From the NCBI GenBank assembly GCA_948468595.1, contig CAOKIU010000004.1:1988-65987 (forward strand): a stretch of 64,000 nt of DNA, given 5' to 3'. Under the pieces are notes generated by a model. The model had not been told where the DNA came from. It was given only the letters and a program-made list of their open reading frames with translations, and made no database searches. Shown piece after piece: positions 6,652 through 41,626 of the stretch. The position numbers were made by a program, and so were the translations under genes. Source of the DNA: an uncultured Christensenella sp. (GTDB taxonomy: Bacteria; Bacillota; Clostridia; Christensenellales; UBA1750). Every line of letters starts with the position of its first letter. Positions within the stretch are counted from its first letter, which is position 1.

Positions 6652-6825
6652 GGCCGTTCCTCCTTTGGCGGAATCCTCTGTTTGCCTATCATTGTACCCG
6701 AGGCCGCGCCAATTGTTTAGGGGGGATTTTTGTGAGAATAGGGGTGCGTTTTGCGTGGAAATTTGCGGGTGGAGGATGGATTTTGCTCGCGCGCGGAGGT
6801 ACAATGAGACAGAGGAGGGATCGCA

Positions 6826-7803
6826 ATGGAGCAGGAGCGGTTTGCCCGCGCCATGGCGGGCGGTCAGGACGCGCAAAGCGAGGGGGAGTGGTTCCAGGTG
6901 ACGCTCTGCCCGGATGGGGAGCTCGTTTGGGAGGGCCGGCGCTGCACCCTCGCCCCAGGCGCGGCGGGCTTTCGGGGCGGACGGCACCTCGGCGCGTCGG
7001 GCCTGCGGCTCTCGTTTTACGAGGCGGTGCAGACCGAGAACTGCAACCGATACCGCATGCCCTGCACGGATTTTGCACAGATCAGCGGGGAGGTGGGCGC
7101 GGTGGACAAATCTCCCGCGCGCATTGAGGCGGAGCGGCGCATCGTGCGCGACATTGAGAACGAGCGCGGGGCGCACCTGACGCGGCTCATCGAGGAGTGG
7201 TTTGACACCGAACCGAACGCGGACGTGGAGACGCTGCGCCTGCTGGTCATCGAGCTGCACCACGTCATCAAGTGGAAGCTGTTTGACGCCCACAGCCTGA
7301 ACGCCGCGCGCGTCAAGCGCGGCTTTGAGGTCTACGAAATCTTGGGCGTGCCCACGGTCGAAGCGCTGAGGCAATGGATGCGGGATTGGGTGATCTACAC
7401 CTTTTTGATTGTCGCGCCGCTGTGCGACGTGCCCGCGCGCCGCGTGGCCCGGGCGGTGCGCTATATGGAGGAGAACGCGGCGGCGCATCCGCGCGTCTTT
7501 GAGGTGGCGGCGCATCTGAATATGGACCCTGCGTATTTTTCCAACGTCTTTAAGCGGGAGACGGGCCTTTCGCCCAGCGCGTACATCCTGCGCCTTAGGC
7601 TGGACAAGGCGGAGGCCATGCTCAAAAGCGGGGTGCCTGTTGGGCGCACCGCGCAGCGGTTGGGCTTTTCCGACCTTAAGGCGTTTCGCGCGGCGTACAG
7701 GGCGAGGTTTGGCGTTCCGCCCTCCCACGCTAAGCAGGGCAGCCCGCCAATTAACCAACTGTTAACGCCCTCGCCGGTTGACAAAACGACAAATAGAATC
7801 TAA
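6826..7803 (+). CDS. AraC/XylS-family transcriptional regulator
   Basis: C-terminal double HTH: VAAHLNMDPAYFSNVFKRETGLSPSAYILRLRLDKAEAMLKSGVPVGRTAQRLGFSDLKAFRAAYRARFGVPP. GAGGAGGG RBS lies before the ATG. Divergent from the ARH/sugar locus. Confidence 0.85.
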   Translation: MEQERFARAMAGGQDAQSEGEWFQVTLCPDGELVWEGRRCTLAPGAAGFRGGRHLGASGLRLSFYEAVQTENCNRYRMPCTDFAQISGEVGAVDKSPARIEAERRIVRDIENERGAHLTRLIEEWFDTEPNADVETLRLLVIELHHVIKWKLFDAHSLNAARVKRGFEVYEILGVPTVEALRQWMRDWVIYTFLIVAPLCDVPARRVARAVRYMEENAAAHPRVFEVAAHLNMDPAYFSNVFKRETGLSPSAYILRLRLDKAEAMLKSGVPVGRTAQRLGFSDLKAFRAAYRARFGVPPSHAKQGSPPINQLLTPSPVDKTTNRI

Positions 7804-15087: not shown

Positions 15088-18000
15088 GTGCTGCCCATTT
15101 GCTTGACGTTGCAGGCCTTCGGGCCGTATCTGGAGGAGCAGACCGTGGACTTTACGCGCCTTTCCGATCGCTTTCTCATCTGGGGGGAGACGGGCGCGGG
15201 CAAGACGGCGCTGCTGGACGCCATGACCTGCGCGCTGTATAACCGCGCCAGCGCCCAGGATCGCGGCGGCGTCTACGACCTGCGCTGCCAGCTTGCCCCC
15301 GCGCAGCAGGAGACGCGCATTGACTTTTTGTTCGCCGTCCGCGGCAGGCGCTATCGCTTTTGGAAGCGCTTAAGGCCGGTGAAGCGGCGCAAGGCTGATG
15401 ACGATGTGCGCAAGAACTACAATTTGGAGTGCGGCGCGGTGGAACTCCTGCCGGACGGCACGGAGAGAAACCTGCTTCAGAGCGCCAAGCCCACCGCCCA
15501 GGAGGAGGCGGCCCAGTTCGTCATCGGCATGGGGTACAGCCAATTTGTGCAGGTGATGGTGCTGCCTCAGGGAAAGTTTGAGCGGTTCTTAACCGCGGAC
15601 TCCACCGAAAAGGAGAAAATCCTCAAAAACATCTTTCGCACCGATCGCTACAACGCCTATCAGGACGGCCTCAACCGCCTGTGCCGCGAACGCGAGGCCG
15701 AAACGCGGGAGGCGGAGCAGGCCGTAGCGGCGCAGTGGGCGGTATACGGCGCGGATAGCGCCGACGCCCTGCGCGCGCAGCTCAGCGGCGACGCCGAGGC
15801 GCTAGACGCCTTGGAGCGCGACGAGCGGGACAGCCGGGCGGGCTATGAACGCCTGAACGCCGAGACGCAGCGCGCGCAGCAGCTTCAGGAGCGGTTCGCC
15901 CGCCTGGACGCCGGCGAGGAGGCCCTGCGGGCGTTGACGGCGCAGGCCGGGGAGGTGAAGCGCCGGGAGGCGGCGCTTCAGGCCGCGGAGCGCGCGCTGT
16001 ATGTCGAGCCGCTTTACGCGCAGATGCAGCGGCTTGCCGCCGAGTGCAGCCAGGCCGGGCGGCGCGCCGTGGGCACAAAACGGCAGCTCGACCAGGCGCG
16101 GGCAGAGGAGCGGGCCGCGCAGGAGGCCCTTGCGTTGCTCAACGCCGAGCAACCCCGCGTAGAATCCTTGCGCCGGGAGGCAGGGCTGTTGGAGATGCGC
16201 CTGCCGGAGCTCATCGGCCTTGCGGCGGCGCGCAGCGCGCTCAAGGAAGCGCAGCGCCTGTGCGCGCCCGCGCAGCGGCGCTTTGAGGCGGAGACGCAAA
16301 GGGCGCGGGAGCTGTCCGCGCGCTTGGAGAACCGCCGCGGCCAGGCGCGGGAATTGGAGGAAAAGTACGTCTCCCGGTTGGTCGCGCTCAAGGAGAGCTG
16401 CGACGCCTACGCGCAGTCTAGGCGCGCGCACGCTCAGGCGCAGGACCTGCGCCAAAGGGCGGAGGCGGCGCGGCAGGCGCGCGCGCAGGCCCAGGAGGAG
16501 CGCGAGGCGGTCAGCGCACGCGTGGCGGAGCTCCTTGGGCAGGAGGCGGAGCGGGAGATGCAGTATTTCAGCAACGCCGCCTCCGAGTTGTCCAAACGGC
16601 TAAAGGAGGGCAAGCCCTGCCCGGTGTGCGGCAGCCTGCACCATCCCAACACGCGCCAGAGCGCGGGCTATTTGAACGCGCGGGAGAACTACCTTGCGGC
16701 GCGCAAGACCCTCCGATCCGCGCAGAAGGCGCTGACCGACGCCGCGGCCAAGAGCGAGGGCGCGGCGGAGCGAGCGCGCAGCCTGGAGGCCCAGGCCGAA
16801 GAGGCGGCGCGCGAGGCTTCCCGCTGCGTGCCCTACGACGAGGAAGCGGAGCGGTCGGCGCTCCAATCCTTGCGGGAGGCGCAGGAGAAAAACGCGCTCT
16901 GCGACGAATGCAAGCGCGAGGCAGTGGAGCTGGAGCGCGAGCTTCGCCGGGCGGAGCGGGAGGCGGCCAAGGCGCAGGAGGAGTACGGCGAGCGCACCGC
17001 GGCCGTGGAGCGCGCCCGCACGAAGCTGGAAGAAGGGGAGCGGCGCGCCGGGGCCACCGCGGAAACCGCCCAGCAGGCGCAGGAGCGGCTGGACGCGATG
17101 CGGCAGGCCGTCTCCCGCCACGAAGAGCGCGCCGAGCGCGCGCGCAAGCGCGGCGGCGAGGCGGAAAAGCAGTCCCTGCTCTGCGCGCGGCTGCATAAGG
17201 ACGCTTGGGAAGCGGCGCAGGAGCTTCAACAGCGGGCGGAGCGCGCGCGTGAAGCGTTCGCCGCGGCGGCAAAGGCGCGCGGGTTCGCCGGCGAGGAGGA
17301 CTTCCTGGCCGCGCTGCGCAGCGAGGAGGAGATCGCCGGCCTGCGCGGCGCGAGCGAAGAATACCAGCGCAGCCTCAGCGCCGCGCGCGCGGAGGCGGAG
17401 GCTGCCCGCAAAGCCGTGGACGGCCAACAGCGGCCCGACCTTGACCGGCTTATGCGGGCGCGGGAGGAGAGCCTTGCGCGATGCAACGCCGCTGCCGCGG
17501 CCGCGGGGGCGCAGCGCGCGCTGTTGGAGAACAAGCGCAAGGCGCTGGTGAAGACCGAGAAGGACGGCGAGAAGGCGCGCGCCCTTCGCCGCGCCTGCGA
17601 CAAGATGCGCGCCTTTGCCGAAACCTTTGCCTACAGCAAGGGCGTTACGCTCTCCAGCTTCGTGCTCTCGGCCATGCTGGCGCGCGTGGCCGAACAGGCC
17701 AACTACCTGTTGGAGCGGGTGCATGGGGGGCGGTACCGGCTGGCCATCTGCCAGGCGTCCAGCCGCGCGAAGCTGGACGGGTTGGAGCTGAAGGTGCTGG
17801 ACGCCTATTCCGGCGGGGAGCGCGATGTGCGCACCCTTTCGGGCGGGGAGAAGTTTCTGGTCTCCCTTACGCTGTCGCTGGGGCTGTCGGCTGTGGTGCG
17901 CGCGCAGACGGGCGGCATCTCCATGGAGGCCATGTTTATCGACGAGGGTTTTGGCACCCTGGACCCCCGCTCCATCAAGGACGCGCTGGACGTGCTTGCG

Positions 18001-18123
18001 CGCATCGGCAGCGGCGGCAAGGTGGGCATCATCTCCCATGTGGAGGTCCTGCGCGAGAACGTCTTGCAGGGCGTTGAGGTGATCAAGGGCGATAAGGGCA
18101 GCAAAATCGCCCTCCACACCTGA
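15088..18123 (+). CDS. sbcC: Exonuclease SbcC (Rad50-type ATPase subunit)
   Basis: GTG start 3 nt after the sbcD stop. Walker A GETGAGKT, long Ala/Glu/Arg-rich coiled coil, zinc hook CPVCGSLHHP, signature LSGGEKFLVSLTLSLGL, Walker B MFIDEGFGTLD. Confidence 0.9.
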   Translation: MLPICLTLQAFGPYLEEQTVDFTRLSDRFLIWGETGAGKTALLDAMTCALYNRASAQDRGGVYDLRCQLAPAQQETRIDFLFAVRGRRYRFWKRLRPVKRRKADDDVRKNYNLECGAVELLPDGTERNLLQSAKPTAQEEAAQFVIGMGYSQFVQVMVLPQGKFERFLTADSTEKEKILKNIFRTDRYNAYQDGLNRLCREREAETREAEQAVAAQWAVYGADSADALRAQLSGDAEALDALERDERDSRAGYERLNAETQRAQQLQERFARLDAGEEALRALTAQAGEVKRREAALQAAERALYVEPLYAQMQRLAAECSQAGRRAVGTKRQLDQARAEERAAQEALALLNAEQPRVESLRREAGLLEMRLPELIGLAAARSALKEAQRLCAPAQRRFEAETQRARELSARLENRRGQARELEEKYVSRLVALKESCDAYAQSRRAHAQAQDLRQRAEAARQARAQAQEEREAVSARVAELLGQEAEREMQYFSNAASELSKRLKEGKPCPVCGSLHHPNTRQSAGYLNARENYLAARKTLRSAQKALTDAAAKSEGAAERARSLEAQAEEAAREASRCVPYDEEAERSALQSLREAQEKNALCDECKREAVELERELRRAEREAAKAQEEYGERTAAVERARTKLEEGERRAGATAETAQQAQERLDAMRQAVSRHEERAERARKRGGEAEKQSLLCARLHKDAWEAAQELQQRAERAREAFAAAAKARGFAGEEDFLAALRSEEEIAGLRGASEEYQRSLSAARAEAEAARKAVDGQQRPDLDRLMRAREESLARCNAAAAAAGAQRALLENKRKALVKTEKDGEKARALRRACDKMRAFAETFAYSKGVTLSSFVLSAMLARVAEQANYLLERVHGGRYRLAICQASSRAKLDGLELKVLDAYSGGERDVRTLSGGEKFLVSLTLSLGLSAVVRAQTGGISMEAMFIDEGFGTLDPRSIKDALDVLARIGSGGKVGIISHVEVLRENVLQGVEVIKGDKGSKIALHT

Positions 18124-25461: not shown

Positions 25462-26736
25462 TTACAACTTTATCCGCAGCTTGTCCAATACATTGTTGTA
25501 TAGCAGCATCCCCGCGGTGCGCTCCGCCTCCTCCAGGTCCATGGCGCCCTCATCCACTTTGCGTGCGAGCGCACGCGCCACCATGCGCCGCGCCATCATC
25601 TGATGGCCGTAGATGGGGTCGATGGGAATGTAGTCGCCGCCAAAGGCGAAGATCTTGTTGCGGGGCATCACATCCAGGTATTCGGCCAGCGCGTTTTCCG
25701 CGGCCAGGGGAGAGACGATGTTCATCCAGGCAAAGTCCACCGTCACATTGGGAAACTGCTTGCCCAGAATGCCCATCTGTCCCACGTAGGGGTAGCCGAT
25801 GTGGAATAGATCAAAGCGCAAGCCCGGATATTTCAACAGCAGGTTGGTCAATTGCAGCGGATCGGTATAGGGAAGGTAGTTGCCGTTGCCCTCCTGGAAC
25901 CCCGTGTGGATCTGCAAAAACGCGCCCATTTCCTCCAAAATGCCCAGGCAGAAGTGCAAAATGTAATCCTGTAGCCGCAGTGGGATGGGGGCTTTGGGGT
26001 TTTGGAGGAAGCGCGGCATCGTCTCCTTAAAGTCGGCCGCGGCGTCCTCATAGCGCACCTGCTCAAAGCGCAGCGGGCGGCTGTAGGCCACGCCCAGCTT
26101 GTAGCCCTGATAGCCGTAGGACGGCGAGGCGGTCAGGTCCGCGCGCACCGCGGCCAGGAACCCGTCAAACGTCATAAGATCCGTGCCATAGTGCACCAGG
26201 GAATCCCAGATGAAGTCCCATTCCGAAAGATACCCGTCCAGCCGCAGAACCTGCGCAAAGAGGGTGTCGTCCGACCAGCCGCTGCCGTACATGTGCGCAA
26301 ACCCGTCGTTGATGCTGCGCTCAATGTGGCAGCAGTCCTTGAGCACGTGGCGGAAGTAATCGGGATTGTCCAGATTGCGTTGGAAGGCCGCGTTGATGCG
26401 GCCGATGGTTTGCCGGTCGACGCGCTTTTCGCCGTACAGGCCGCGCGCCGTCTCGTCCAGCGACCGGCCGTAGCCCGTGGTGCGGCAAATCTCCCACCAG
26501 GGCTCAATCTGGGAGAAGCGCTCCTCCACATCCCGCGTCGTGTCCAGCGCCGCTTGGAGCAGCGCCGGGGGCATTCCCGCGGAGAGCAAATCCTTGTCAA
26601 AATAATGGCGCAGATATTCCGTCAGGATGTCCGCGGGCTGCGGGCGCAGACTGGGCCGAAGGGGCAGGTGTTCGTGGGTGTCTAAAATGGGCGTCTGTGC
26701 GATGCGGTCAAAAAGCGTGCTTGCCGTTGCGTTCAT
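25462..26736 (-). CDS. Amidohydrolase-superfamily TIM-barrel metalloenzyme (uronate-isomerase-like), function unknown
   Basis: ATG at 26736, 7 nt after AAGGAGG. ILDTHEHLP (HxH metal motif), FLQIHTGF, DLFHIGYPY, GGDY. Confidence 0.75.
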   Translation of the reverse strand: MNATASTLFDRIAQTPILDTHEHLPLRPSLRPQPADILTEYLRHYFDKDLLSAGMPPALLQAALDTTRDVEERFSQIEPWWEICRTTGYGRSLDETARGLYGEKRVDRQTIGRINAAFQRNLDNPDYFRHVLKDCCHIERSINDGFAHMYGSGWSDDTLFAQVLRLDGYLSEWDFIWDSLVHYGTDLMTFDGFLAAVRADLTASPSYGYQGYKLGVAYSRPLRFEQVRYEDAAADFKETMPRFLQNPKAPIPLRLQDYILHFCLGILEEMGAFLQIHTGFQEGNGNYLPYTDPLQLTNLLLKYPGLRFDLFHIGYPYVGQMGILGKQFPNVTVDFAWMNIVSPLAAENALAEYLDVMPRNKIFAFGGDYIPIDPIYGHQMMARRMVARALARKVDEGAMDLEEAERTAGMLLYNNVLDKLRIKL

Positions 26737-26917
26737 CAAAATGCCTCCTTGCCGTTGCTAGCGATTCATGTCGCTGCATATAGTGTTCTGCGCGGCGCTG
26801 TACAAGTCCTTGTTTTCCCGTCCCTTCGCCCTCTTTCCCGGCTTGTTTGTTGTATCCCAAAGCAAGATGGAATTGTTTGTTTTTCACGCCAAAAAAATAC
26901 ACTTCTCTCCAACAGTG

Positions 26918-26957
26918 TTGACAGTCACTTAACAAAATGATACGCTTTTTGTACTAT
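26918..26957 (+). promoter_or_regulatory. Promoter region of the seven-gene envelope operon (two alternative sigma-A registers)
   Basis: Register 1: TTGACA (26918-23), 17 nt, TACGCT (26941-46). Register 2: TTAACA (26929-34), 17 nt, TACTAT (26952-57). Either register puts the track's ATG at 26937 inside the promoter. Confidence 0.5.
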
Positions 26958-27053
26958 GGGGTCCCATCGGGAGCGCGGTTTTACGTGTTGGGCCGCGGGA
27001 AGTCGACGATGGACCTTTGGCAGGGGCAGAAATCGGAAAGGGCGGTAGGGTGT

Positions 27054-28034
27054 ATGCGCGTGCGCAAGAGGCTTTTTTGCGGGAATCAAACCCGCCCAAG
27101 GGCTTTGGCGAAATCCGGCTGGCTGTATGCGCTTACGGCGGTGCTGTGCGCAGCGCTGCTGTTTGCAACGCCGAGACTTTTCGCCCAGCGCACCCAGCCC
27201 CTTGCGCCCTCAAGCGACGCGGGACTGTTCTCCTGGAGCGCGGAGGAGGTCAATAAGACCGATGGAAAGCTCTTCTCCCTGATGAAACAGGAAAAACTGA
27301 ATGTTTTGTACCAAAGTTTTTCCGACAAGAACAGCCGGCAGGAGCAGATGTCCATCTTTGTGGAGACGGCGATGGAGGAGGGCATAAAGGTCTATCACCT
27401 GACCGGGGACCCCTCCTGGGGAACGGACCCAAAGGGAGAGAGGCTCTGCCAGGCCGTGGAGGAGGCGAACGCCTATAACCGCCGGATCAAGCGAAAGTTC
27501 CTGGAGCGGCGGGAGAAGGACGGCCAAAGGTGGAAAGAAATTCCGCAGCTTGCGGGGATTGTCTTTGATGTGGAGCCCTACATCCTGAAGGAGTGGGATA
27601 AAGATCCGGAAAAGGTTATGAACAGCTTTGTCTCCGGGATGAAAGCCGCATACGCTCTGGCGCAGGACTATGGATTGGAAGTCATCGTCTGCGTGCCCTG
27701 GCACTATGATCAAAACGGGCAGCAGGGAGGCTTGGAGGAGCTGATCAAGAGCGGCTGCGACAGCATCGCGGTGATGAACTATTATCGCGGTTCGGAAATC
27801 AAAAACATCGCCACGGAAGTGGAATTGGTGAAGAAATACTGCAAGGGGCTCATCACCATCTATGAGCTGCAAGAGGCGGACGGCCGAGGCGTGAGGGAAA
27901 TCAACACCTACGCAGGCTGCGGGCTTGACGCCGTGAAAAAGAACTACGATGGCGTCAGGGAGGCCTATCCGGAGCAAAGGATCTCCCTGGCCTATCACGA
28001 TTACCGGGCCTTGAAGGGAATGTTGGAAAGGTGA
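27054..28034 (+). CDS. Membrane-anchored extracytoplasmic TIM-barrel-like protein, putative glycoside hydrolase-like (DxE motif)
   Basis: Start uncertain (ATG at 27009 or 27054, both in frame with ORF 26937..28034). Basic head plus one TM (WLYALTAVLCAALLFATPRLF). The body alternates hydrophobic strands and helices and carries LAGIVFDVEPY, which resembles the GH18-type DxxDxDxE strand. The stop overlaps the next gene's GTG. Confidence 0.6.
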   Translation: MRVRKRLFCGNQTRPRALAKSGWLYALTAVLCAALLFATPRLFAQRTQPLAPSSDAGLFSWSAEEVNKTDGKLFSLMKQEKLNVLYQSFSDKNSRQEQMSIFVETAMEEGIKVYHLTGDPSWGTDPKGERLCQAVEEANAYNRRIKRKFLERREKDGQRWKEIPQLAGIVFDVEPYILKEWDKDPEKVMNSFVSGMKAAYALAQDYGLEVIVCVPWHYDQNGQQGGLEELIKSGCDSIAVMNYYRGSEIKNIATEVELVKKYCKGLITIYELQEADGRGVREINTYAGCGLDAVKKNYDGVREAYPEQRISLAYHDYRALKGMLER

Positions 28035-28726
28035 ATGAAGTTCTTCGGCAGGAGAGGAAGTTTCTCATCGGCCTGCCTGACTACTATCAGTTCAGCGGCA
28101 ATCTGGCCAAGGTCATGATGGAGGACCCGCACAACCGCGGCGACGGATACCCCATCCGCTCCCTCTACTTTGACTCGCTGGAGGACCGGGACTTTCAGGA
28201 GAAGCTGGACGGCGTATCGATTCGCCGCAAGATCCGCCTAAGGTGCTACGGCCCGGGCAGCGACTTTGCCCTGCTGGAGGTCAAGCAAAAAGAGGCGAAC
28301 CTGCAAAAAAAGCGCTCCCTGCGCCTTCCGCGCGCGGCGGCCGCCCGCCTGACCCAGGGGGATTACAGCCCGCTGCTGACCTGCCCGGAGCCCCTGGCCC
28401 AGGAATGCTACGCCCTGATGAACATCCATGCCTACCGGCCCCGCTCCGTGGTGGAATACCGCCGGAGGGCTTTCATTGCCAAGGAGAACAAGATCCGCGT
28501 CACCTTTGATCACCACATCGTGGGGACGGAGAGCCATTACGATATTTTTGACAGTGCGCTCAACCAATACCCCCTTCAGGACCCGTCGCTGGTGGTGCTG
28601 GAGGTCAAGTACAACGGCTTTCTGCTGAGCTATATCAAGGATATGCTCCGCGATTGTGCGACCGGCGAAATATCCGTCAGCAAATACGGCCTGAGCCGGT
28701 CGGTCAGCAAGCACATTGATTTTTAA
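28031..28726 (+). CDS. VTC-domain (CYTH/triphosphate-tunnel, polyphosphate-polymerase-like) protein
   Basis: GTG at 28031 overlaps the upstream stop (GTGA). Tunnel-type alternating charged strands: QERKFLI, IRSLYFDS, IRRKIRLRCY, LLEVKQKE, VEYRRRAFI, IRVTFDHHI, VVLEVKYNG. No TM segment. Confidence 0.75.
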   Translation: MNEVLRQERKFLIGLPDYYQFSGNLAKVMMEDPHNRGDGYPIRSLYFDSLEDRDFQEKLDGVSIRRKIRLRCYGPGSDFALLEVKQKEANLQKKRSLRLPRAAAARLTQGDYSPLLTCPEPLAQECYALMNIHAYRPRSVVEYRRRAFIAKENKIRVTFDHHIVGTESHYDIFDSALNQYPLQDPSLVVLEVKYNGFLLSYIKDMLRDCATGEISVSKYGLSRSVSKHIDF

Positions 28727-28744
28727 ATCTAGGAGACATAGACC

Positions 28745-29422
28745 ATGAGAGAGTATCTAGCCCAGATCATCGCGGAAAGCGGGAGCCTCACTGCGCAGGA
28801 GGTCGTGCTGCATATCGCCGCCTCGGCGGTGCTGAGCATCGCCATTTACGTTTCCTACTGGTATACCCATGCGGGCACGGCCTACAGCAAAAAATTCAAT
28901 GTGTCGCTCATGACCCTCACCGTCCTTACCGCCACCGTTATGACGGTCATCGGCAACAACATCGCCCTGTCCCTTGGCATGGTGGGCGCGCTGTCCATCG
29001 TGCGCTTCCGCACGGCCATCAAGGACTCCAGGGACACGGCCTACATCTTCTGGACCATTATTGTGGGCATCTGCTGCGGCGTGGGGGACTACCTGGTGGC
29101 CGGCGTGGGCACGGCCGTGGTGTTTATCATCCTGATGGTCCTGGGCCGGGTGCGGAATGAAAACCGCATTTTGCTCATCATTCGGGGCGCGAAGGAGAGA
29201 AGCGCGGACATGGAGCGCCTGGTCTTCTCCTATTTTAACAAGCGCGCCCTCTTGCGCGTGCGCAACACCACGGCGGAGCATGTGGAGCTGATCTACGAGA
29301 TGCCCCGGCGGATCTGGCAGTTAAACTACCGCAAGGATGTGGATATTTCCGACGCGCTGTACGCCCTGGGCGGCACGGAGTATGTAAACACCGTGACCCA
29401 GAGCGACGAGATTAGCGGGTGA
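28745..29422 (+). CDS. DUF4956-like polytopic membrane protein
   Basis: TAGGAGA RBS. About five hydrophobic segments (VVLHIAASAVLSIAIYVSYWY, VSLMTLTVLTATVMTVIG, LGMVGALSIVRF, AYIFWTIIVGICCGVG, LVAGVGTAVVFIILMVLG) plus a ~90-aa soluble tail. Family assignment is from memory of the VTC/DUF4956/CotH neighbourhood. Confidence 0.65.
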   Translation: MREYLAQIIAESGSLTAQEVVLHIAASAVLSIAIYVSYWYTHAGTAYSKKFNVSLMTLTVLTATVMTVIGNNIALSLGMVGALSIVRFRTAIKDSRDTAYIFWTIIVGICCGVGDYLVAGVGTAVVFIILMVLGRVRNENRILLIIRGAKERSADMERLVFSYFNKRALLRVRNTTAEHVELIYEMPRRIWQLNYRKDVDISDALYALGGTEYVNTVTQSDEISG

Positions 29423-30963
29423 CGGCCGTGCGGCGCGGCATGGTGGTCATGGCGGGCGTGGCGGCGTGCATCCTGCTGCTGTCCCTCCTGTTTCAGGACA
29501 TGGGAGACCGAACGGGCGTGATGCGGTATCAGCAGCACCGCGCGCAGCCATCGGAAGAGGAGCTGGGCCGCTGCGCGGTTTGCGGCGGAGCGGGGCAGCT
29601 GTGCACCCATCTGCCCATCATCCGCATTGAGACGGGCGGCAAGACCATTCCGGGACGCCCCTATGAGGGAGAGAACGGCGATACGGCGGGCTATTACGCA
29701 GGGGAAGACGGGGAGGAGGAAATCTTAGTCCGGTTTTCCACGGTGTCGGAGGAGGGCGTTTGGCACCACGCGGACGATGCCGCAACCGAGGAAGGCGAGG
29801 CCCTTTTCCGCTACCGGGGCAACAGCTCCCGCTGGTTTGCCAAGGGCAACTTCCGCCTCAGAACCGTGGAGGATGGAAACCCGGAGCAAAGCCGGAAAAT
29901 GGGTCTGCTGGGGATGAAGAGCGGCAAGGAATGGTCCCTGCACGGACCCTTTTTGGACAAGACGCTGATGCGGAACTACCTTTGCATGAACCTCTCGGCG
30001 GAGGTGACGGGCGAATGGACGCCGGACGTGCGCTTTTGCGAGGTGCTGCTGGACGGGGAGTATCAGGGCGTCTACCTGCTGACGGAGACCATCGACGTGG
30101 ATGAAAACCGGCTGGCCCTGCACGAGTATGCGCCGGGGGACCCGGTGATGAGCTACCTGGTCCGCATTGAACCCCGCACCAACCCGGAAAAGGTGTTGGA
30201 CAATTTCACCCTCTACTCCTACCGGATGGAGCCGGGGCGGAATTTGGAGCTCTTGTACCCGGGGACCATCAACCAAACCCAGCAAGTGCGCTCCTACGTT
30301 CAGGCCGACTTCAACGAGGTGGAGCGGATGCTCTATTCCGTGGAGATGCTGGACGGCTCCGACGCCTGGCAACAGGTATTGGACATGGATTCCTTTGTGG
30401 ATTACTATATCCTGATGGAGTTTTTCGGAATCAACGATACCTTTGGCGCCTCGACCTACTTTTACCGGGATGCCCGGGGCAAGCTGTGCATCGGTCCGGT
30501 ATGGGATTACAACAATGCCCTTGACAACAACTTTTTGCGGCCTAGCTCCAGCCGCGAATTCCTGATCTCCCAGAGAGGGTGGTATGCAAAGCTGATGCAG
30601 GACGAGGATTTTGTGGAGCGGGTGATCACCCGCGACCGGGATTTGCGCAAGGGCGTTCTTTCCGAGGCGCGCCGTGTTGCCGATGAAAAGGAGGTGCAGG
30701 CGTGGCTGGGCAGCGCCGTGGACCGCAACTTCTCCGTCTGGGGCTATTCGTTTAACCCGGATATGCTCACGAGCCACGAGCGCCATCGGCCTTATCCGGA
30801 AAGCGGCGAAACCCTGCGGGATGTGAACCCCTCCAGCTATGAGGAGGCGGTGGAATGGATGATGGAGTACATGATCGACCGGGGGCAGTGGATGGATGAC
30901 CACATCGAATCCCTGCGGCAATACAGCCACCCCTCCAGGGTTGCCAATCAGACGCTGGGGTAG
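29419..30963 (+). CDS. CotH-family atypical kinase, N-terminally membrane-anchored
   Basis: GTG overlaps the DUF4956 stop (GTGA). Signal anchor RRGMVVMAGVAACILLLSLLF. CotH blocks FRYRGNSSRWFAKGNFRL, WSLHGPFLDKTLMRNYL, CEVLLDGEYQGVYLLTE, FYRDARGKLCIGPVWDYNNALDN. Confidence 0.8.
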   Translation: MTAVRRGMVVMAGVAACILLLSLLFQDMGDRTGVMRYQQHRAQPSEEELGRCAVCGGAGQLCTHLPIIRIETGGKTIPGRPYEGENGDTAGYYAGEDGEEEILVRFSTVSEEGVWHHADDAATEEGEALFRYRGNSSRWFAKGNFRLRTVEDGNPEQSRKMGLLGMKSGKEWSLHGPFLDKTLMRNYLCMNLSAEVTGEWTPDVRFCEVLLDGEYQGVYLLTETIDVDENRLALHEYAPGDPVMSYLVRIEPRTNPEKVLDNFTLYSYRMEPGRNLELLYPGTINQTQQVRSYVQADFNEVERMLYSVEMLDGSDAWQQVLDMDSFVDYYILMEFFGINDTFGASTYFYRDARGKLCIGPVWDYNNALDNNFLRPSSSREFLISQRGWYAKLMQDEDFVERVITRDRDLRKGVLSEARRVADEKEVQAWLGSAVDRNFSVWGYSFNPDMLTSHERHRPYPESGETLRDVNPSSYEEAVEWMMEYMIDRGQWMDDHIESLRQYSHPSRVANQTLG

Positions 30964-30977
30964 GAAGGAAAACGGGA

Positions 30978-33122
30978 ATGAGACGATTTGTAACAGCGGC
31001 GGTGCTGCTGTTGGCCATTGCCCTTGGCGCGTATTACGCCGTCTTCTACGGCGGGCTCTACCTGCGCCTTGGAAAGGGGGAGGCGGTGGACCTGCCCTTC
31101 CGCGCGGAGGGAACGGAGCTTCAGCGTTGGAACGGACAGGACTATGCCGCGCTGACCCTGCGCGGCGTGGATGTATCCGCCAGCATGCCGGGGCACTACG
31201 CCACCGCCTATGACGCCGGGGAGGAGGATTACCTCCGTTGGTTTGAGGCCATCGGCGAAATGGGGGCCAACGCCGTTCGGGCGACCAATGTGATGAACGA
31301 CGATTTTTACAACGCCCTTTATGCCTATAACACCACCCATGATCAGCCCTTGTACCTGCTTCAGGGCACCAACATCAGCGACGATGTGGGCGACGGCGCC
31401 AAGGACGCTTATGTCGATGGCTTTCTCGGCGCGCTGATTGAGGACGGCAAAAACCTGGTGGATATCGTCCACGGGCGGAAAAACCTTCCCGCCGTCGGGA
31501 TTCGGAGCGGCGGCGTGTACCGAAAGGACGTCTCCCCCTGGGTGGTGGGGTTTCTTGTGGGGACGGAGTGGTATCCCGATACCATCTCCTATACGGACCA
31601 CAGCACCATCCGATCCGGCGCTTTTGAGGGGACGTACTTCCAAACGACGGCCGATGCCACGCCCTTTGAGGCGGCGATGGCGCAAGTCATGGAGGCGATC
31701 ACCGCCTATGAGACGGATAAATACGGCGCGCAGCGGCCCATCGGGTTTCTCTGCGATCCTTCCTGCGACTTTCTCGAGTATGAGGAGGTCTACGCCCGCC
31801 AGCTGAGCAAGCACGCGCAGGCCGACCCGGAGCATGTCACGCCCACGCCCTCGATGGCGGCGGGATGCTTTGCCGCCTACCGGCTCTTCCATTTTTGCGA
31901 TACGTTTGCGCAGCGCCTTTCCAGCGCGCAGCAACAGGCCATTGCGCCGCTCCTTGAGGGACTGCCCACCGAACAGCCTTACGGCGGTTATCTTAAGCTG
32001 TTGACCCGATACCATACCATGCCGGTGCTGGCCGCAGGCTACGGCGTTTCCTCCAGCCGCGGCGCCGTGGTGCAGGATAAGGAGCCTCTGACGGAGAAGC
32101 AGCAGGGGGAGCGCTTGGTCGAAATCAGCCGGACGCTGGAGGACGACGGCTGGGCGGGGGGCTTCATCTCCACCTGGCAGGACGAATGGGAGCGCAGGAG
32201 CTGGAACACGGCCTTTGCCACAGTGCCAACGGAGAACTATCTTTGGCACGATTTGCAGACGGAAAGCCAGGGCTATGGCCTGATGGCTTTCGCCCCGGGG
32301 GCGCAGGCGACCTGCACCCTGGATGGGAACCCCGATGAGTGGACGGCCAAGGACCTCCTCCTGGAGCGGGACGGGCTGCGCCTGTCGGCCCGCTACGACG
32401 CCGAGGGCGTATACCTGCTGGTGGAAGGGATGGACCAGCAGGAGGCGCTTTACCTGCCCCTGGATGTGTCGCCGGAGGTGGGGAGCCGCTCCTCGGATCG
32501 CCCTGCGCTGACATTTGCGCGGGAGGCGGATCTTCTCCTCTGCATTGACGGGGCGGAAGACACCCGGCTGCTGGTGCAAGAGCGCTTCGACCCCCTGCGG
32601 GAGCGGTTTCTCAACGAGACAGAGGGCGTGGACCCCTTTCTGTACTTCCCAAAGAAGGAGAGCAAATCCTTTGTGTCCCTGGGCATGGCGATGCAAAACA
32701 CCCTGCTGGTGGAGGAGCTCAACCCCAAGACCCGCGCCCTTCAGCGCCTGAAGGTGTGGGAGACGGGAAAGCTGGTCCACGGAAACGGGGACAGCCAATC
32801 GGCGGAGTATAACTCTCTGGCCGACTTCTGCTTTGGAGAGGGGTGCGTGGAGATTCGCCTCCCTTGGCTGCTGCTGAACGTGGGCGACCCTTCCTCCATG
32901 ATGGTCCATCGGGACTATTACGCGCATTATGGCGTGGAGTTTCAGTCGGTTGAGAGGATTTGGATTGGGATGGCCCGTCAGGGCGACCAGGGCGAGATTC
33001 CCATGGAGGCGCTGCGGCTCAGGGGCTGGAAGCGCGTAGAGTACCGGGAGCGGCTGAAGGAGAGCTACTACGTCGTGCAGGCGGCTTGGAAAGGGGGCGG
33101 CCAGAATGCAGCTTCCGGTTAA
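30978..33122 (+). CDS. Membrane-anchored 714-aa protein with clan GH-A-like TIM-barrel region and C-terminal beta-rich domains, function unknown
   Basis: GGAAGGAAAA RBS. Signal anchor AAVLLLAIALGAYYAVFYGGLYL. LRGVDVSASMPGHY..YLRWFEAIGEMGANAVRATNV..VVGFLVGTEWYP..VLAAGYGVSSSRG..GGFISTWQDEW. Confidence 0.65.
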   Translation: MRRFVTAAVLLLAIALGAYYAVFYGGLYLRLGKGEAVDLPFRAEGTELQRWNGQDYAALTLRGVDVSASMPGHYATAYDAGEEDYLRWFEAIGEMGANAVRATNVMNDDFYNALYAYNTTHDQPLYLLQGTNISDDVGDGAKDAYVDGFLGALIEDGKNLVDIVHGRKNLPAVGIRSGGVYRKDVSPWVVGFLVGTEWYPDTISYTDHSTIRSGAFEGTYFQTTADATPFEAAMAQVMEAITAYETDKYGAQRPIGFLCDPSCDFLEYEEVYARQLSKHAQADPEHVTPTPSMAAGCFAAYRLFHFCDTFAQRLSSAQQQAIAPLLEGLPTEQPYGGYLKLLTRYHTMPVLAAGYGVSSSRGAVVQDKEPLTEKQQGERLVEISRTLEDDGWAGGFISTWQDEWERRSWNTAFATVPTENYLWHDLQTESQGYGLMAFAPGAQATCTLDGNPDEWTAKDLLLERDGLRLSARYDAEGVYLLVEGMDQQEALYLPLDVSPEVGSRSSDRPALTFAREADLLLCIDGAEDTRLLVQERFDPLRERFLNETEGVDPFLYFPKKESKSFVSLGMAMQNTLLVEELNPKTRALQRLKVWETGKLVHGNGDSQSAEYNSLADFCFGEGCVEIRLPWLLLNVGDPSSMMVHRDYYAHYGVEFQSVERIWIGMARQGDQGEIPMEALRLRGWKRVEYRERLKESYYVVQAAWKGGGQNAASG

Positions 33123-34215
33123 GGGCGTAATTTACTTTTACATGTTCATTTGCGTCGCCCTGTTGGTGTTTAACCTGCTCTATATCTGCCGCGCCGATCA
33201 CGTCAAGCGGCGGCAGCAGCGCAAAAGCCAGCGCTGGGAGGCGTATCTGGACGGCGTGAAGAAGGGCGGAAAGCCCGCATGGAGCCGGAGAAAGCTGTTT
33301 CGCATGCTGCGCAACAGTCAGGAGCTCATGGCCCTCTATGCGGCCGCAGAGGGCCGGGACCAGGCGGAGATCGAGGCCGTCTTTCGGCAAAATCGCTCGC
33401 TGTTTGTGGAACTGGCGCAGGATTACGGGAAGAAGGCCCCCATGGAGCGAGCCTTTTTCGCCTATGTGATCGCCGCCTTTTATCCGGCCGTAGGGGACAA
33501 GCAGGACCCGCTGCTGGAGATCCTTCTCCGCTACCTGGATGACTCCACAGTATACTGCCGGGAAAATGTGCTCCACGCCCTGTATACTTTGGGAAACATG
33601 CAGGCGGTGGAGCACGCCTTCGTCCTGATGAGCCAGCGGGAGTGGTATCACGACCCCAGGCTCCTGGCCGATGGGCTGAACCGGTTTCAGGGGGAGCGGG
33701 AGAAGCTGGCCGGCAGGCTTTGGAGCCGCAGAAGGGATCTGATCGAGTGTTACCAATCGGGCGCCATTCGCTTTGCCGACGCGCTGCCCGGGGACGATTT
33801 TGTAGAGGACTTCCTGGAGGCGCTCAAGACCGAGACGCTTCCCACGGAGACGCAGTTTGCGCTGGTGCGGTATTTTCGCCGCCATGCCGACCCGCGCGCA
33901 AAACCGGAGCTGCTTAGGCTGCTAAAGGAGCAGGTGGAGGGAAGGCGGGAGCTGGCCATCGCCGCGGCCGCGGCCCTCTCCTCTTATCCGGACGGGGAAA
34001 CCCGGCAGGCCCTCAAAGAGGCGCTCCGCAGCCGCAATTGGTATGTGCGGCAGAACGCGGCCCGCTCCTTAAAGGCGATGGGCGCCACCTGGGAGGAAAT
34101 TCAGGCCGAAATAAAGGGAGACCGATACGCGACGGAGATGCTGGAATACGTCTATGGCGTCCAGCCTGCCGGGGCGCAAGGCGGAAAGGAAAGCGAGGTG
34201 CATAAGGCGGTATGA
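33106..34215 (+). CDS. Membrane-anchored HEAT/PBS-lyase-repeat protein
   Basis: The ATG overlaps the upstream gene by 17 nt. One N-terminal TM (VIYFYMFICVALLVFNLLYI) followed by basic residues. Helical repeats ending ...LAIAAAAALSSYPDGETRQALKEALRSRNWYVRQNAARSLKAMG. Confidence 0.7.
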   Translation: MQLPVKGVIYFYMFICVALLVFNLLYICRADHVKRRQQRKSQRWEAYLDGVKKGGKPAWSRRKLFRMLRNSQELMALYAAAEGRDQAEIEAVFRQNRSLFVELAQDYGKKAPMERAFFAYVIAAFYPAVGDKQDPLLEILLRYLDDSTVYCRENVLHALYTLGNMQAVEHAFVLMSQREWYHDPRLLADGLNRFQGEREKLAGRLWSRRRDLIECYQSGAIRFADALPGDDFVEDFLEALKTETLPTETQFALVRYFRRHADPRAKPELLRLLKEQVEGRRELAIAAAAALSSYPDGETRQALKEALRSRNWYVRQNAARSLKAMGATWEEIQAEIKGDRYATEMLEYVYGVQPAGAQGGKESEVHKAV

Positions 34216-35636
34216 ACGAGGTGATGATTCAAATTCTGCGTGTGGTGGAAGTGTTTTTTCTGCTGTATCTTCTGCTTTACGCCTCCTATCTGTTCCTGTC
34301 CGTGGCCATGGGCGCCTGGCGGCTTTACCGCCTGGACCGGATGCGCGCCATCAAAAACGAACTCAAGCATGAGTTCTACTTTCCCGTCTCCATCCTGGTG
34401 CCTGCCCACAACGAAGAGGTCACCATTTTGGACAGTGTGCTCTCCTTGCTGAAACTGGACTACCGGCTCTATGAGATTATCGTCGTGGACGATGGGTCCG
34501 GGGACGACACAAGCAAGGTGCTCATCGATCACTTCCACATGAAGGAGGTTCGCCGTCCCATCCGGAGGAGCATCCCCTGCAAACACATCGTGGCCATTTA
34601 CGAGGCGCCGGATACGCGCGTTCGGCTGACCCTCCTGCGGAAGGAAAACGGGGGCAAGGGCGATGCGCTCAACGCCGGCATCAACGCCTCCCAGTATCCC
34701 TATTTTCTCTGCATTGACGCGGATTCCATGCTTCAGTGGGATTCGCTGGAGCGCATCGCCCAGCCGGTGATGGAGGATGACGACGTGGTGGCGGTGGGAG
34801 GGTTGATCCGCATCGCGCAGTGCATAACGGTGGATTGGAAGGAGGGCGGCGATCTCAAGCAGGGGCTGAGTTATCACCTGCCTTGGAACTTCCTGACCAG
34901 CATGCAGGTCATGGAGTACGACCGGTCCTTCCTGGCCTCCCGCATACTGATGGACAACTTCAACGGCAACCTAATCATCTCCGGCGCTTTTGGCCTGTTT
35001 AAAAAGAGCGTGGTCATTGCCGCCGGCGGCTACGCCACCGACGTGTTGGGCGAGGACATGGAACTGGTGGTCAAGCTGCACGCCTACTGCCGCAACAACA
35101 TGGAGAAGTATTCCATCCGCTACGAACCCAATGCGATTTGTTGGAGCCAGGTCCCCTCGACGATGACGGACCTCTTCAAGCAGCGCCGCCGGTGGCATAT
35201 CGGTTTGTTTCAGTGCATCACGCGGTATGGCTTTATGTTCATGAAATCGCGCTTCGGAATGGTGGGCACCGCATCCTACCTCTACTATCTGCTCTATGAG
35301 CTGTATTCGCCCATCATTGAATTGGTGGGGTTGATTGCGACGATCGCGGCGGCGCTGGTGGGCCTGCTCAATTTCACCTTCATGGTCCAATTCTACCTGC
35401 TCTTTGCGCTCTACAGCTCCATTTTGACCATCACCGCGTTCTTTCAGCGGATCTACACGCAAAATGTCCGTTTGAGTTCGCGGGATGTGTTCCGCGCCTG
35501 CGTCATGTGCCTGATCGAGAACGTCTTCTTCCGATTTGTCTTTGACTTTATCCGCCTTAGCGCGTTTTTCAGCTACCGGAAAAACAAGGGAACTTGGGGA
35601 AAAATCAAGCGCGTGCAGCAAAGCCAGGCGCAATAG
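34212..35636 (+). CDS. Processive family-2 glycosyltransferase (synthase type, PgaC/IcaA/BcsA-like core with flanking TM helices)
   Basis: ATGA overlap with the HEAT gene. N-terminal TMs, then ILVPAHNEE, IIVVDDGSGDDT, GGKGDALNAG, LCIDADSM (DxD), ISGAFGLFKK, QRRRWHIG (QxxRW), then several C-terminal TMs. Confidence 0.85.
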   Translation: MNEVMIQILRVVEVFFLLYLLLYASYLFLSVAMGAWRLYRLDRMRAIKNELKHEFYFPVSILVPAHNEEVTILDSVLSLLKLDYRLYEIIVVDDGSGDDTSKVLIDHFHMKEVRRPIRRSIPCKHIVAIYEAPDTRVRLTLLRKENGGKGDALNAGINASQYPYFLCIDADSMLQWDSLERIAQPVMEDDDVVAVGGLIRIAQCITVDWKEGGDLKQGLSYHLPWNFLTSMQVMEYDRSFLASRILMDNFNGNLIISGAFGLFKKSVVIAAGGYATDVLGEDMELVVKLHAYCRNNMEKYSIRYEPNAICWSQVPSTMTDLFKQRRRWHIGLFQCITRYGFMFMKSRFGMVGTASYLYYLLYELYSPIIELVGLIATIAAALVGLLNFTFMVQFYLLFALYSSILTITAFFQRIYTQNVRLSSRDVFRACVMCLIENVFFRFVFDFIRLSAFFSYRKNKGTWGKIKRVQQSQAQ

Positions 35637-35707: not shown

Positions 35708-35746
35708 CGGCAGCCGGTGGGGATATGTCTTCCCCGCCGGCTGCCG
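35708..35746 (+). other. Very stable 16-bp hairpin (possible terminator or RNA-stability element)
   Basis: CGGCAGCCGGTGGGGA-TATGTCT-TCCCCGCCGGCTGCCG (one G-U pair), followed by CGTTGATTTG. Confidence 0.5.
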
Positions 35747-40663: not shown

Positions 40664-41626
40664 ATGACGGAACAAGAATTGTTTGCGCGCCTCAATCTCT
40701 TTAAGAAGCTGGCCATTCCCCGGCCGTCGCTGTTTGCCCTGGAGAAAAAGGGCGAGAGGAGCTTTGCGCGCGCGACGCCGGATCACGGGCTGATGGTCTA
40801 TCCCGACGCGGAGAGCTGCCGCGTGGGCCTCTACGCGCAGGAGTGCATGCGCGCGGGCGACGGCTGGGACGACGCGCCGCTCCTTATGTGCGGCGCGCTT
40901 GTGCAGATGTGCGACCGGGAGGACCTGGACCGGGACGATTACGCGCTGATCAAGTCGCTGGGGCTGCGCTATCGCGGCCGCGGGCAATGGCCGCGCCTGC
41001 GCCGCCTGCGCCCTGGCCGCGTTCCTTGGTACTTGGAGGAAGAGGACAGGGAATTGCTCGCCGCCGCCCTTGACGCCGCCTGCGCGCTGGCCGAAGGGGG
41101 AAGGCTGTGCCTTCCCGAGGATGAGCTCGCCGTTGTTGCGGAGGACGGCCTTCGGTGGGAGGCGATGGAGATTGCGCCTGCACCGCCCCTCTACCCGGTC
41201 GCGGACATTCCGGACGAGATGATGCTGGCCCGCCTCAAAAAGCAGCCCAAGCGGAGCGCCGCTTGGGAGGTGACGGTGCAGGCCTTTCCCTATCCCGCCG
41301 ACAGCGGGGACGGCGGCGCGCCGGTGTGCCCGCAGATGCTGCTGATGGTCGATGAGGAGACGGATCAGGTGCTGGACATCTGTGTAACCAACGATTATCA
41401 GGGCGAGGGATACCGCCGCCTGTCCGATGCGTTTCTCACCCAAATTCAGAAGCGCGGCCGCCCCATGCGCCTGCGCTGCGCCAATATCCGTGCGCTGAGC
41501 CTCATGGAGGACATCTGCCGCAAAACGGGCGTGCCCGCCGAGCTGTGCGCGAACCTGCCGCAGCTCAAGGAGGCGTTTGAGTCCCTGCTCCGCTTAACCG
41601 GCGAGGCGGATGGCGGCGAGGAATAA
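40664..41626 (+). CDS. Conserved-looking hypothetical protein (320 aa), no family assigned with confidence
   Basis: Starts 9 nt after the cdd stop. Soluble and acidic. Has normal protein-like composition, unlike the antisense artefacts. Confidence 0.65.
   Translation: MTEQELFARLNLFKKLAIPRPSLFALEKKGERSFARATPDHGLMVYPDAESCRVGLYAQECMRAGDGWDDAPLLMCGALVQMCDREDLDRDDYALIKSLGLRYRGRGQWPRLRRLRPGRVPWYLEEEDRELLAAALDAACALAEGGRLCLPEDELAVVAEDGLRWEAMEIAPAPPLYPVADIPDEMMLARLKKQPKRSAAWEVTVQAFPYPADSGDGGAPVCPQMLLMVDEETDQVLDICVTNDYQGEGYRRLSDAFLTQIQKRGRPMRLRCANIRALSLMEDICRKTGVPAELCANLPQLKEAFESLLRLTGEADGGEE

Follow-up and report, generated by a model that had tools for sequence, protein, structure and literature searches.

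In a 64,000-nt stretch of DNA from an uncultured Christensenella sp. (contig CAOKIU010000004.1; this whole stretch is called the window below), two neighbouring genes encode a soluble protein of the VTC family (28031-28726, 231 aa) and a DUF4956 membrane protein (28745-29422, 225 aa). Our analysis of sequences and structural models classes the first as a Vtc4-type tunnel domain with a complete set of catalytic residues, and the two genes together form an invariant core that recurs across distant lineages and gene orders, with a CotH-family protein as the usual third partner. Bacterial polyphosphate (polyP) synthesis is classically attributed to PPK1 and PPK2. We tentatively propose, with confidence a little short of even, that the pair is the core of a widespread bacterial module, in which a cytoplasmic Vtc4-type enzyme and an MgtC-like DUF4956 protein act together with an outward-facing CotH protein within a synthase-dependent exopolysaccharide operon, and in which polyP would be made and used in the three steps described below. 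The best reading is that polyP would be synthesised at the membrane and have a matrix-related role outside the cytoplasm.

An earlier sequence-only reading of the window had called the same two open reading frames (ORFs), 18 nt apart, and all seven peptides that it quoted are present in the translation. It had treated the pair as standing alone, whereas both genes belong to a seven-gene operon (26937-35636, + strand) that also encodes a CotH kinase and a GT2 synthase.

The VTC-domain protein

The 231-aa protein matched the Pfam VTC family (PF09359) with an E-value of 2.1e-38 and 132.6 bits (cut-off 23), the match covering protein residues 6-223 and model positions 2-231 of 235. It has no hydrophobic segment, as the sequence-only reading had said, and no transmembrane (TM) segment was found in 82 of 83 homologues. 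A Foldseek search with its AlphaFold model (predicted local distance difference test score, pLDDT, 87) returned Vtc4 (3g3r/3g3q) as the best match in the PDB, with an E-value of 2.5e-12, a TM-score of 0.72 and 17-18% identity, and ranks 1-13 were all taken by tunnel domains of Vtc4, Vtc3 or Vtc2, from crystal as well as cryo-EM chains (E 2.5e-12 to 1e-8). Hydrolytic triphosphate tunnel metalloenzymes (TTMs), namely YgiF, AtTTM3 and thiamine triphosphatase, and class IV cyclases gave weaker matches, below all of the Vtc chains. In searches of the PDB, neither phmmer with either protein of the pair nor a profile of close VTC homologues found Vtc4, and the searches with VTC sequences reached no solved structure at all; a profile of 45 diverse homologues (31-48% identical to the window protein, drawn from representatives at 50% identity) matched Vtc4 with an E-value of 1e-10. 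An exhaustive profile search gathered 7,639 clusters at 50% identity, 737 of them at E<=1e-30, most being stand-alone proteins of about 230 aa; the extensions of longer members are coiled-coil or low-complexity sequence, an unrelated multi-TM region, or the likely result of chimeric contigs (YchF and EAL fragments). All of the sequence and structure criteria tested place the 231-aa protein in the VTC domain family, in keeping with the triphosphate-tunnel identity that the sequence-only reading had assigned to it and with the RefSeq name, which is already 'polyphosphate polymerase domain-containing protein'.

In a cryo-EM study of the VTC complex (10.1101/2023.01.27.525886), triphosphate is bound by K200, R264, R266, K281, R361, K458, S457 and Y359, and Mn2+ by E426; the ligand residues other than E426 are all required for polyP in vivo, and K458 is the sole ligand that is replaced in the inactive Vtc2 (by Ile) and Vtc3 (by Leu). 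In a hidden Markov model (HMM) alignment, Vtc4 residues correspond to those of the window protein as follows: K200 to K10, R264 to R69, R266 to R71, K281 to K85, Y359 to Y143, R361 to R145, R373 to R156, E426 to E191, K428 to K193, S457 to S217 and K458 to K218. In the C-terminal third (E426, S457, K458) this map combines a low-scoring HMM segment with the exact motifs VLEVK and SK[FY], K218 lying in the motif S-K-Y. The sequence-only reading had named this alignment as the place where its proposal could fail; all nine triphosphate- and Mn-binding residues of Vtc4 proved to be identical in the window protein. Moreover, the mapped residues are invariant in the 45-sequence alignment apart from S217, which is at least 90% conserved. 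The aligned sequences thus indicate that the full catalytic set is conserved in the bacterial family, K458 included, which is new here.

Two Agathobaculum loci (L003, 7179-7871; L005, 10001-10693) carry an additional, solitary VTC gene about 5 kb 3' of the GT2 gene with no adjoining DUF4956; its product has Gly where Vtc4 has S457.

The same alignments bear on whether the enzyme might break down phosphate chains instead of building them. The VTC protein could be a tripolyphosphatase, a nucleotide triphosphatase or a related enzyme that degrades a phosphate compound at the membrane or signals with it, an alternative that we regard as unlikely. Its fold is common to YgiF, AtTTM3, thiamine triphosphatase and the class IV cyclases, and the bacterial family has an invariant glutamate (Glu8) at the position of Vtc4 Thr198, which is the second Glu position, and so one half, of the ExExK motif that serves hydrolytic TTMs to bind a second metal; such glutamates build a water-activating metal site. 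At the same time, the first Glu position of that motif is Arg in the window protein (R6), as it is in Vtc4 (R196), the strand E191-V-K193 equals Vtc4 E426-V-K428, the polymerase-specific lysine (K218, equivalent to K458) is invariant, and every Vtc4, Vtc3 and Vtc2 chain outranks all of the hydrolases in the fold search. Hydrolytic TTMs carry an ExE pair on that strand.

Gene neighbourhood and operon partners

At least 589 species have a VTC relative according to our genome scan, the nearest, at 80% identity, being in an uncultured Oscillospiraceae genome; the counts for genome loci given here refer to the best 80 loci of that scan. The pairing of VTC with DUF4956, which had been seen in a single stretch of DNA by the sequence-only reading, extends to all 78 loci in which flanking contig is present, always as adjacent genes on the same strand. 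The longer block VTC-DUF4956-CotH-p714-HEAT-GT2 (p714 being a 714-aa protein described below) is collinear in 59 of the 80 loci, and nearly all of the others end at contig ends.

A metagenome scan seeded with a relative about 31% identical to the window VTC protein gave more distant loci for the same comparison. Here DUF4956 adjoined VTC on the same strand in 46 of 48 loci with flanks, in several arrangements: writing V for VTC, D for DUF4956 and C for CotH, the counts by gene order were VD 24, DV 12, CVD 16, VDC 12 and CDV 7. Given that the two remain neighbours whatever the gene order, they therefore make up a real functional unit. A CotH profile found CotH in 17 of the 27 metagenome loci with flanks of at least 4 kb; among the ten loci with no match to that profile, four have a divergent multidomain CotH recognised by Pfam and three have a beta-helix protein of 916-940 aa in the same position. 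VTC-DUF4956 is thus the invariant core and CotH its usual third partner. That this core holds across distant lineages and gene orders had, like the conservation of K458, not been part of earlier descriptions.

The CotH partners in distant loci can be large (860-1173 aa; L117 3656-7177, L133 3420-6611, L131 10403-13105 and L088 5005-7587) and are fused to lamin-tail, chitobiase C-terminal/Fn3-associated or right-handed beta-helix domains, as would suit proteins that act on a glycan or surface outside the cell.

Other lineages carry the genes in several settings. The seven-gene operon is complete on a plasmid of Planococcus maritimus (Bacillales; NZ_CP059541, L081, 4470-12824), the order VTC-DUF4956-CotH occurs in Nonomuraea (Actinomycetota), and the Pseudobutyrivibrio plasmid pNP95 has CotH-VTC-DUF4956 in a polysaccharide cluster of another make-up, alongside GT2, GT4, acyltransferase and pyruvyltransferase genes. 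In three metagenome loci, a gene for a family I inorganic pyrophosphatase (PF00719), each with an N-terminal signal peptide, lies directly 3' of the pair (Table 1), a small independent hint of phosphoanhydride chemistry outside the membrane.

Table 1. Coordinates of the operon features in the window and of the exported pyrophosphatase genes in three metagenome loci (numbered within each locus)
Feature	Position	Strand	Remarks
Promoter-like site TTGCTA-18-TATAGT	26755..26784	+	5' of operon; weak, 9/12 matches in consensus scan
365-aa protein, first operon gene	26937..28034	+	No family; one TM segment; bulk predicted outside membrane
VTC domain, 231 aa	28031..28726	+	Pfam PF09359; soluble; putative polyphosphate polymerase
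DUF4956 membrane protein, 225 aa	28745..29422	+	Pfam PF16316; predicted five TM helices and cytoplasmic ACT-like domain
CotH-family kinase, 514 aa	29419..30963	+	Pfam PF08757, E 1.8e-51; N-terminal signal anchor
714-aa extracytoplasmic protein (p714)	30978..33122	+	Probably TIM-barrel glycosidase/transglycosylase-like, with C-terminal beta domain
HEAT-repeat protein, 369 aa	33106..34215	+	Pfam HEAT_2, E 4.4e-11; N-terminal TM; repeats predicted cytoplasmic
Processive GT2, 474 aa	34212..35636	+	PgaC/IcaA-like or chitin-synthase-like; TM helices; polysaccharide synthase
Terminator-like hairpin, 16 pairs (13 G-C)	35708..35746	+	72 nt past GT2 stop; marks operon end
Exported pyrophosphatase gene	L088 9446-10093		
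Exported pyrophosphatase gene	L089 9679-10398		
Exported pyrophosphatase gene	L093 9400-10047		

Within the window operon, neighbouring genes overlap at their start and stop codons or are separated by 14-18 nt: the VTC gene begins with a GTG that overlaps the TGA of the upstream gene, and the DUF4956 gene starts behind an AGGAGA ribosome-binding site. Six promoter-like sites were found in the region against 3.5 expected by chance. The gene 5' of the operon is divergent (25462-26739, minus strand), the next gene 3' of it encodes an unrelated UvrD helicase (at 35852), and the flanking genes (amidohydrolase, phosphomannose-isomerase-like protein, methyltransferase, UvrD) have no relation to the operon. 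The G+C content at third codon positions (GC3) of the pair's two ORFs, 0.80-0.85, is typical of genes in the window, the overall G+C of which is about 60%. Considering this together with the strong family E-values, the conserved synteny and the thousands of homologues with invariant catalytic residues, it is highly improbable that the two are chance ORFs or decayed genes.

No pel families occur in the operon or among the five genes on each side, which are housekeeping genes, and identity with a Pel locus was rejected on this ground. No ppk1, ppk2 or pel family was found among the 27 proteins scanned out of the window's 49 likely genes.

The CotH family profile matches Bacillus cereus CotH (5jd9) with an E-value of 5e-14. 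D340 and D363 of the window protein are invariant and align to D224 and D247 of the B. cereus protein; from the spacing of 23 residues, we infer that they are the equivalents of the catalytic D228 and D251 of B. subtilis. A single N-terminal TM segment was found in 76 of 77 CotH homologues, and the positive-inside rule, on which alone the topology is based, puts 50 of these 76 as N-in/C-out and 8 the opposite way, with 18 ties. The kinase domain, apparently active and with both catalytic aspartates kept, is accordingly predicted to lie outside the membrane, and the orthologue of Streptococcus intermedius is described as secreted in a 2025 mBio study of that species. The predicted outward orientation of CotH and, in some loci, of a pyrophosphatase is a further point that is new here.

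The remaining operon proteins are less familiar. The 365-aa protein has no match in Pfam, NCBIfam or the PDB; its homologues contain invariant DxEP and MNYY motifs, are N-in/C-out in 16 of 18 cases, and occupy the same position in 12 of the 80 loci with a complete block (plus three truncated loci) and a downstream position in six. The p714 protein of the window has no Pfam match, while 6 of 21 homologues match GH72 (best E 1e-5) and the family profile gives a weak match in the PDB to a GH2 catalytic domain (E 0.04); it has an N-terminal TM segment, with the C-terminus outside in 60 of 66 homologues. The HEAT protein shows the reverse orientation, N-out/C-in, in 56 of 60 homologues. The GT2 protein matches Pfam Glycos_transf_2 (E 1.4e-24) and Chitin_synth_2 (E 1e-6), as well as TIGR03937 PgaC_IcaA with an E-value of 5.7e-45 and 154 bits, under the equivalog cut-off of 422, and its homologues have 3-7 TM segments, so that it classifies as a processive synthase related to PgaC, below equivalog level.

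Elsewhere in the window, G+C rises to 0.715 in 16001-18000, inside an SbcC/Rad50-like ORF (15088-18123), against about 0.60 in other parts. An unusually long (890 aa) ADP-ribosylglycohydrolase-domain protein (5086-7758, minus strand) and a DUF7309/DUF6930 protein (40664-41626, + strand) are also encoded there, both unrelated to the pair.

The DUF4956 protein and a possible function of the module

The 225-aa protein matched Pfam DUF4956 (PF16316) with an E-value of 1.5e-14 and 54.5 bits (cut-off 30.6). The only other Pfam family to appear was MgtC (PF02308), below threshold (26.0 bits against 31.4, E 1.2e-5), over residues 58-137 and model positions 46-119; a precomputed PF02308 match exists for 35 of 120 close DUF4956 homologues. 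The sequence-only reading had expected about five hydrophobic helices and a soluble tail of some 90 aa, and the AlphaFold model (pLDDT 78) has helices at residues 17-42, 49-69, 73-88, 95-113 and 116-133, followed by a beta-alpha-beta-beta-alpha-beta domain at 141-219; homologues have 4-5 TM segments. The further suggestion that DUF4956 is the counterpart of the VTC transmembrane subunits is not borne out by homology. No VTC-complex chain was present among the top 50 listed fold matches, and the two best, both weak, were the C-terminal domains of MgtC from Mycobacterium tuberculosis (2lqj, E 6.7e-3, target TM-score 0.62) and Pseudomonas aeruginosa (7qa5, E 1.3e-2), other ACT/ferredoxin-like folds scoring nearly equal.

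A comparison by hhalign of the DUF4956 alignment with Escherichia coli YhiD, a bona fide MgtC-family protein, was weak (E 0.012, probability 3.6%), and the conserved DUF4956 stretch can be aligned to YhiD with no gaps over GALSIVRFRTAIKDSRDTAYIFWTIIVGICCGVGDY. Close DUF4956 homologues from many genera have a mean column identity of 84% and share the invariant stretch TVMTVIGNN..LSLGMVGALSIVR.RTA.KDSRD..YIFW.I..GICCGVGD, the core of which, GALS(I/V)VRFRxA(I/V)K, is retained even in the DUF4956 of an actinomycete. Like proteins of the MgtC/SapB/YhiD group, DUF4956 is 215-225 aa long, with an N-terminal membrane domain of four to five helices and a C-terminal domain that is probably ACT-like, and both have the motif G-A-x-x-I-x-R...T-A-x-I-(W/F)-x-T-x-x-(I/V)-G-x-x-x-G-x-G-x-Y. 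Unlike MgtC, DUF4956 has an invariant basic loop of its own, RFRTAIKDSRD, and we know of no MgtC genes that pair with VTC domains. Judged by profiles and fold comparison, DUF4956 is best described as a remote MgtC/YhiD-like protein and does not appear to be homologous to a Vtc1-type channel; export through it is plausible as a proposal that homology does not support. The S. intermedius orthologue was likewise described as an MgtC TM domain joined to an ACT domain (mBio 2025).

The close DUF4956 subfamily also has an invariant acidic C-terminal tail, VTQSDEI(S/T)G (residues 217-225), which is predicted to be disordered and which more distant members do not share; a role in docking or as a pseudo-substrate is conceivable.

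We propose that the module works in three steps. In the first, which sequence conservation and the analogy with yeast support well, the VTC domain would bind ATP-Mn2+ in its basic tunnel and add the gamma-phosphate to a growing chain as Vtc4 does; polymerase activity is expected because the Vtc4 ligand set is fully conserved, including the lysine by which active Vtc4 differs from the inactive Vtc2 and Vtc3. In the second, to which strict gene adjacency and predicted topology lend weak support, DUF4956 would keep the enzyme at the membrane's inner face and either conduct the product outward or gate the enzyme through its ACT-like domain; considering that DUF4956 has no homology to the VTC channel, translocation is therefore something that we purely infer. 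In the third, which is speculative and takes its support from gene context, the phosphoanhydride product would serve the extracytoplasmic part of the system, perhaps as a phosphoryl donor for CotH, where ATP is scarce, or perhaps as a polyanion deposited together with the polysaccharide. The presence of an outward-facing CotH and a GT2 synthase in the same seven-gene operon makes a purpose in cell-surface or matrix biology more likely than general polyphosphate storage. An isolated phosphate-storage system was rejected as the main interpretation on account of the conserved operon context. The most specific form of the proposal, in which a third, Vtc4-type bacterial polyP route feeds an MgtC-like protein that passes the product across the membrane to fuel an extracytoplasmic CotH kinase, which in turn phosphorylates exopolysaccharide or surface proteins, or in which the polyP itself goes to the biofilm matrix, seems improbable to us as a whole.

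The likeness to MgtC also opens a regulatory explanation, which we hold to be possible but rather doubtful. The VTC product, polyP or a short phosphate oligomer, would then stay in the cytoplasm, DUF4956 would be an MgtC-like regulator whose ACT-like domain senses a phosphate species or nucleotide and which tunes the neighbouring synthase or the cellular phosphate/ATP balance, and CotH would act independently on surface proteins or polymer. MgtC regulates ATP synthase, PhoR and the production of cellulose, a summary also given in the mBio 2025 paper, and the sub-threshold Pfam match, the fold matches and the ungapped YhiD alignment all point in its direction; at the same time, this similarity is weak by hhalign. 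In S. intermedius, where each gene of the set was deleted with mild phenotypes, loss of DUF4956 led to more Pel and less aggregation, the former as expected of a negative regulator, loss of CotH led to less Pel, and loss of the VTC orthologue did nothing obvious (mBio 2025). Streptococcal pel loci with the trio, moreover, lack control by cyclic di-GMP. What a purely regulatory module leaves unexplained is the need for an enzyme of the polyP-polymerase type, the steady company of an outward-facing kinase and the secreted pyrophosphatase of some loci.

Several observations weigh against the proposal that polyP is made by the pair for use outside the membrane. To our knowledge, proteins of the MgtC family are regulators and not transporters. 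The membrane partner, which is MgtC-like and has five helices and an ACT-like tail, is unlike Vtc1/DUF202, whose three-helix TM domains form the pentameric polyP channel of VTC. Pfam finds no second domain in the 231-aa protein, and so no counterpart of the N-terminal SPX domain through which VTC senses inositol pyrophosphates; with neither an SPX domain nor a Vtc1-type channel, membership in the VTC-complex architecture is ruled out. No fusion of VTC with DUF4956 or CotH occurs among the 150 best family representatives, and the retained Glu8 would be compatible with hydrolysis rather than polymerisation. The orientation of CotH carries its ties and contrary cases with it. The literature that we searched holds no enzymology for any bacterial VTC-domain protein, and, as the sequence-only reading had supposed, no demonstrated function for the bacterial pair. 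Finally, deletion of the S. intermedius VTC orthologue SIR_1593 brought no reported change (mBio 2025), and this silent mutant, together with the opposite effects of DUF4956 and CotH on Pel, does not fit a linear pathway from VTC through DUF4956 to CotH, unless another source of polyP compensates.

Comparison with known systems

The yeast VTC complex (Vtc4/Vtc3/Vtc1; 3g3q, 7ytj, 8i6v) shares with the bacterial module the tunnel fold, the nine ligand residues including K458, and the pairing of the enzyme with a membrane component, and by analogy the product would in both cases act on the far side of the membrane. The bacterial protein differs in being a bare 231 aa, lacking both the SPX sensor and the three TM helices at the C-terminus, and its module goes with CotH and polysaccharide synthases and not with vacuoles or acidocalcisomes. 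If the prediction holds, the net reaction, ATP-dependent polyP synthesis, would be the same as that of PPK1 and PPK2, the folds and mechanisms of which are unrelated. A Vtc4-type enzyme that is functional in bacteria would thus be a third class of polyP synthase beside those two, and the eukaryotic vacuolar polymerase would, if this is true, be matched in prokaryotes by a widespread relative (7,639 clusters, with hits in at least 589 species genomes).

The pair with CotH is a gene set already described in the literature (bioRxiv 10.1101/768473, PMC2879425, PMC12345266). Whitfield et al. noted that pel operons of streptococci, clostridia and bifidobacteria have cotH, a gene for a polyP polymerase, DUF4956 and DUF4832 among their accessory genes, and the authors of the mBio 2025 study state that they did not see the trio beyond Pel loci. 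We find it to be common there, in the window and in 59 of 80 related genomes, which is new here. In the window the trio is contiguous (28031-30963), as it is in the Gram-positive Pel accessory module. The accessory set of S. intermedius (cotH-PPP-DUF4956-DUF4832, SIR_1594-1591) resembles the window operon in having a secreted CotH, a VTC protein, an MgtC-like protein with four to five TM segments and an ACT domain, a glycosidase-like protein with a TM anchor and an adjoining exopolysaccharide synthase locus; the adjacent TM-anchored TIM-barrel protein of S. intermedius is an active glycosidase (mBio 2025). The window operon differs in having no pelDEA(DA)FG and, in their place, a PgaC-like GT2, a HEAT protein and p714.

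A close counterpart is NELoc-2 of Clostridium perfringens (CP4_0459-CP4_0468), where gene order and sizes match those of the window operon: a hypothetical protein of 348 aa (365 in the window), VTC of 232 (231), a membrane protein of 226 (225), CotH of 497 (514), a hypothetical protein of 685 (714), HEAT of 377 (369) and a GT2/chitin-synthase-like protein of 466 (474). The DUF4956 gene there is mis-annotated as 'tubulin/FtsZ', and the VTC-DUF4956 pair is down-regulated in vivo. NELoc-2 differs in that the VTC-membrane pair is duplicated, with a resolvase gene between the copies, and in that the host is a low-GC pathogen; together with the plasmid copy of the operon in Planococcus, the nearby resolvase suggests horizontal movement of the locus. 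In gut Clostridia, in streptococci and in a C. perfringens locus associated with avian necrotic enteritis, the pair keeps company with polysaccharide synthases and an outward-facing kinase. Should the product indeed fuel CotH, this would amount to an ATP-independent phosphorylation system working outside the cell, and the module offers a testable candidate answer both to what powers phosphorylation outside the Gram-positive cell and to the role of the accessory genes of Pel-type and related biofilm loci.

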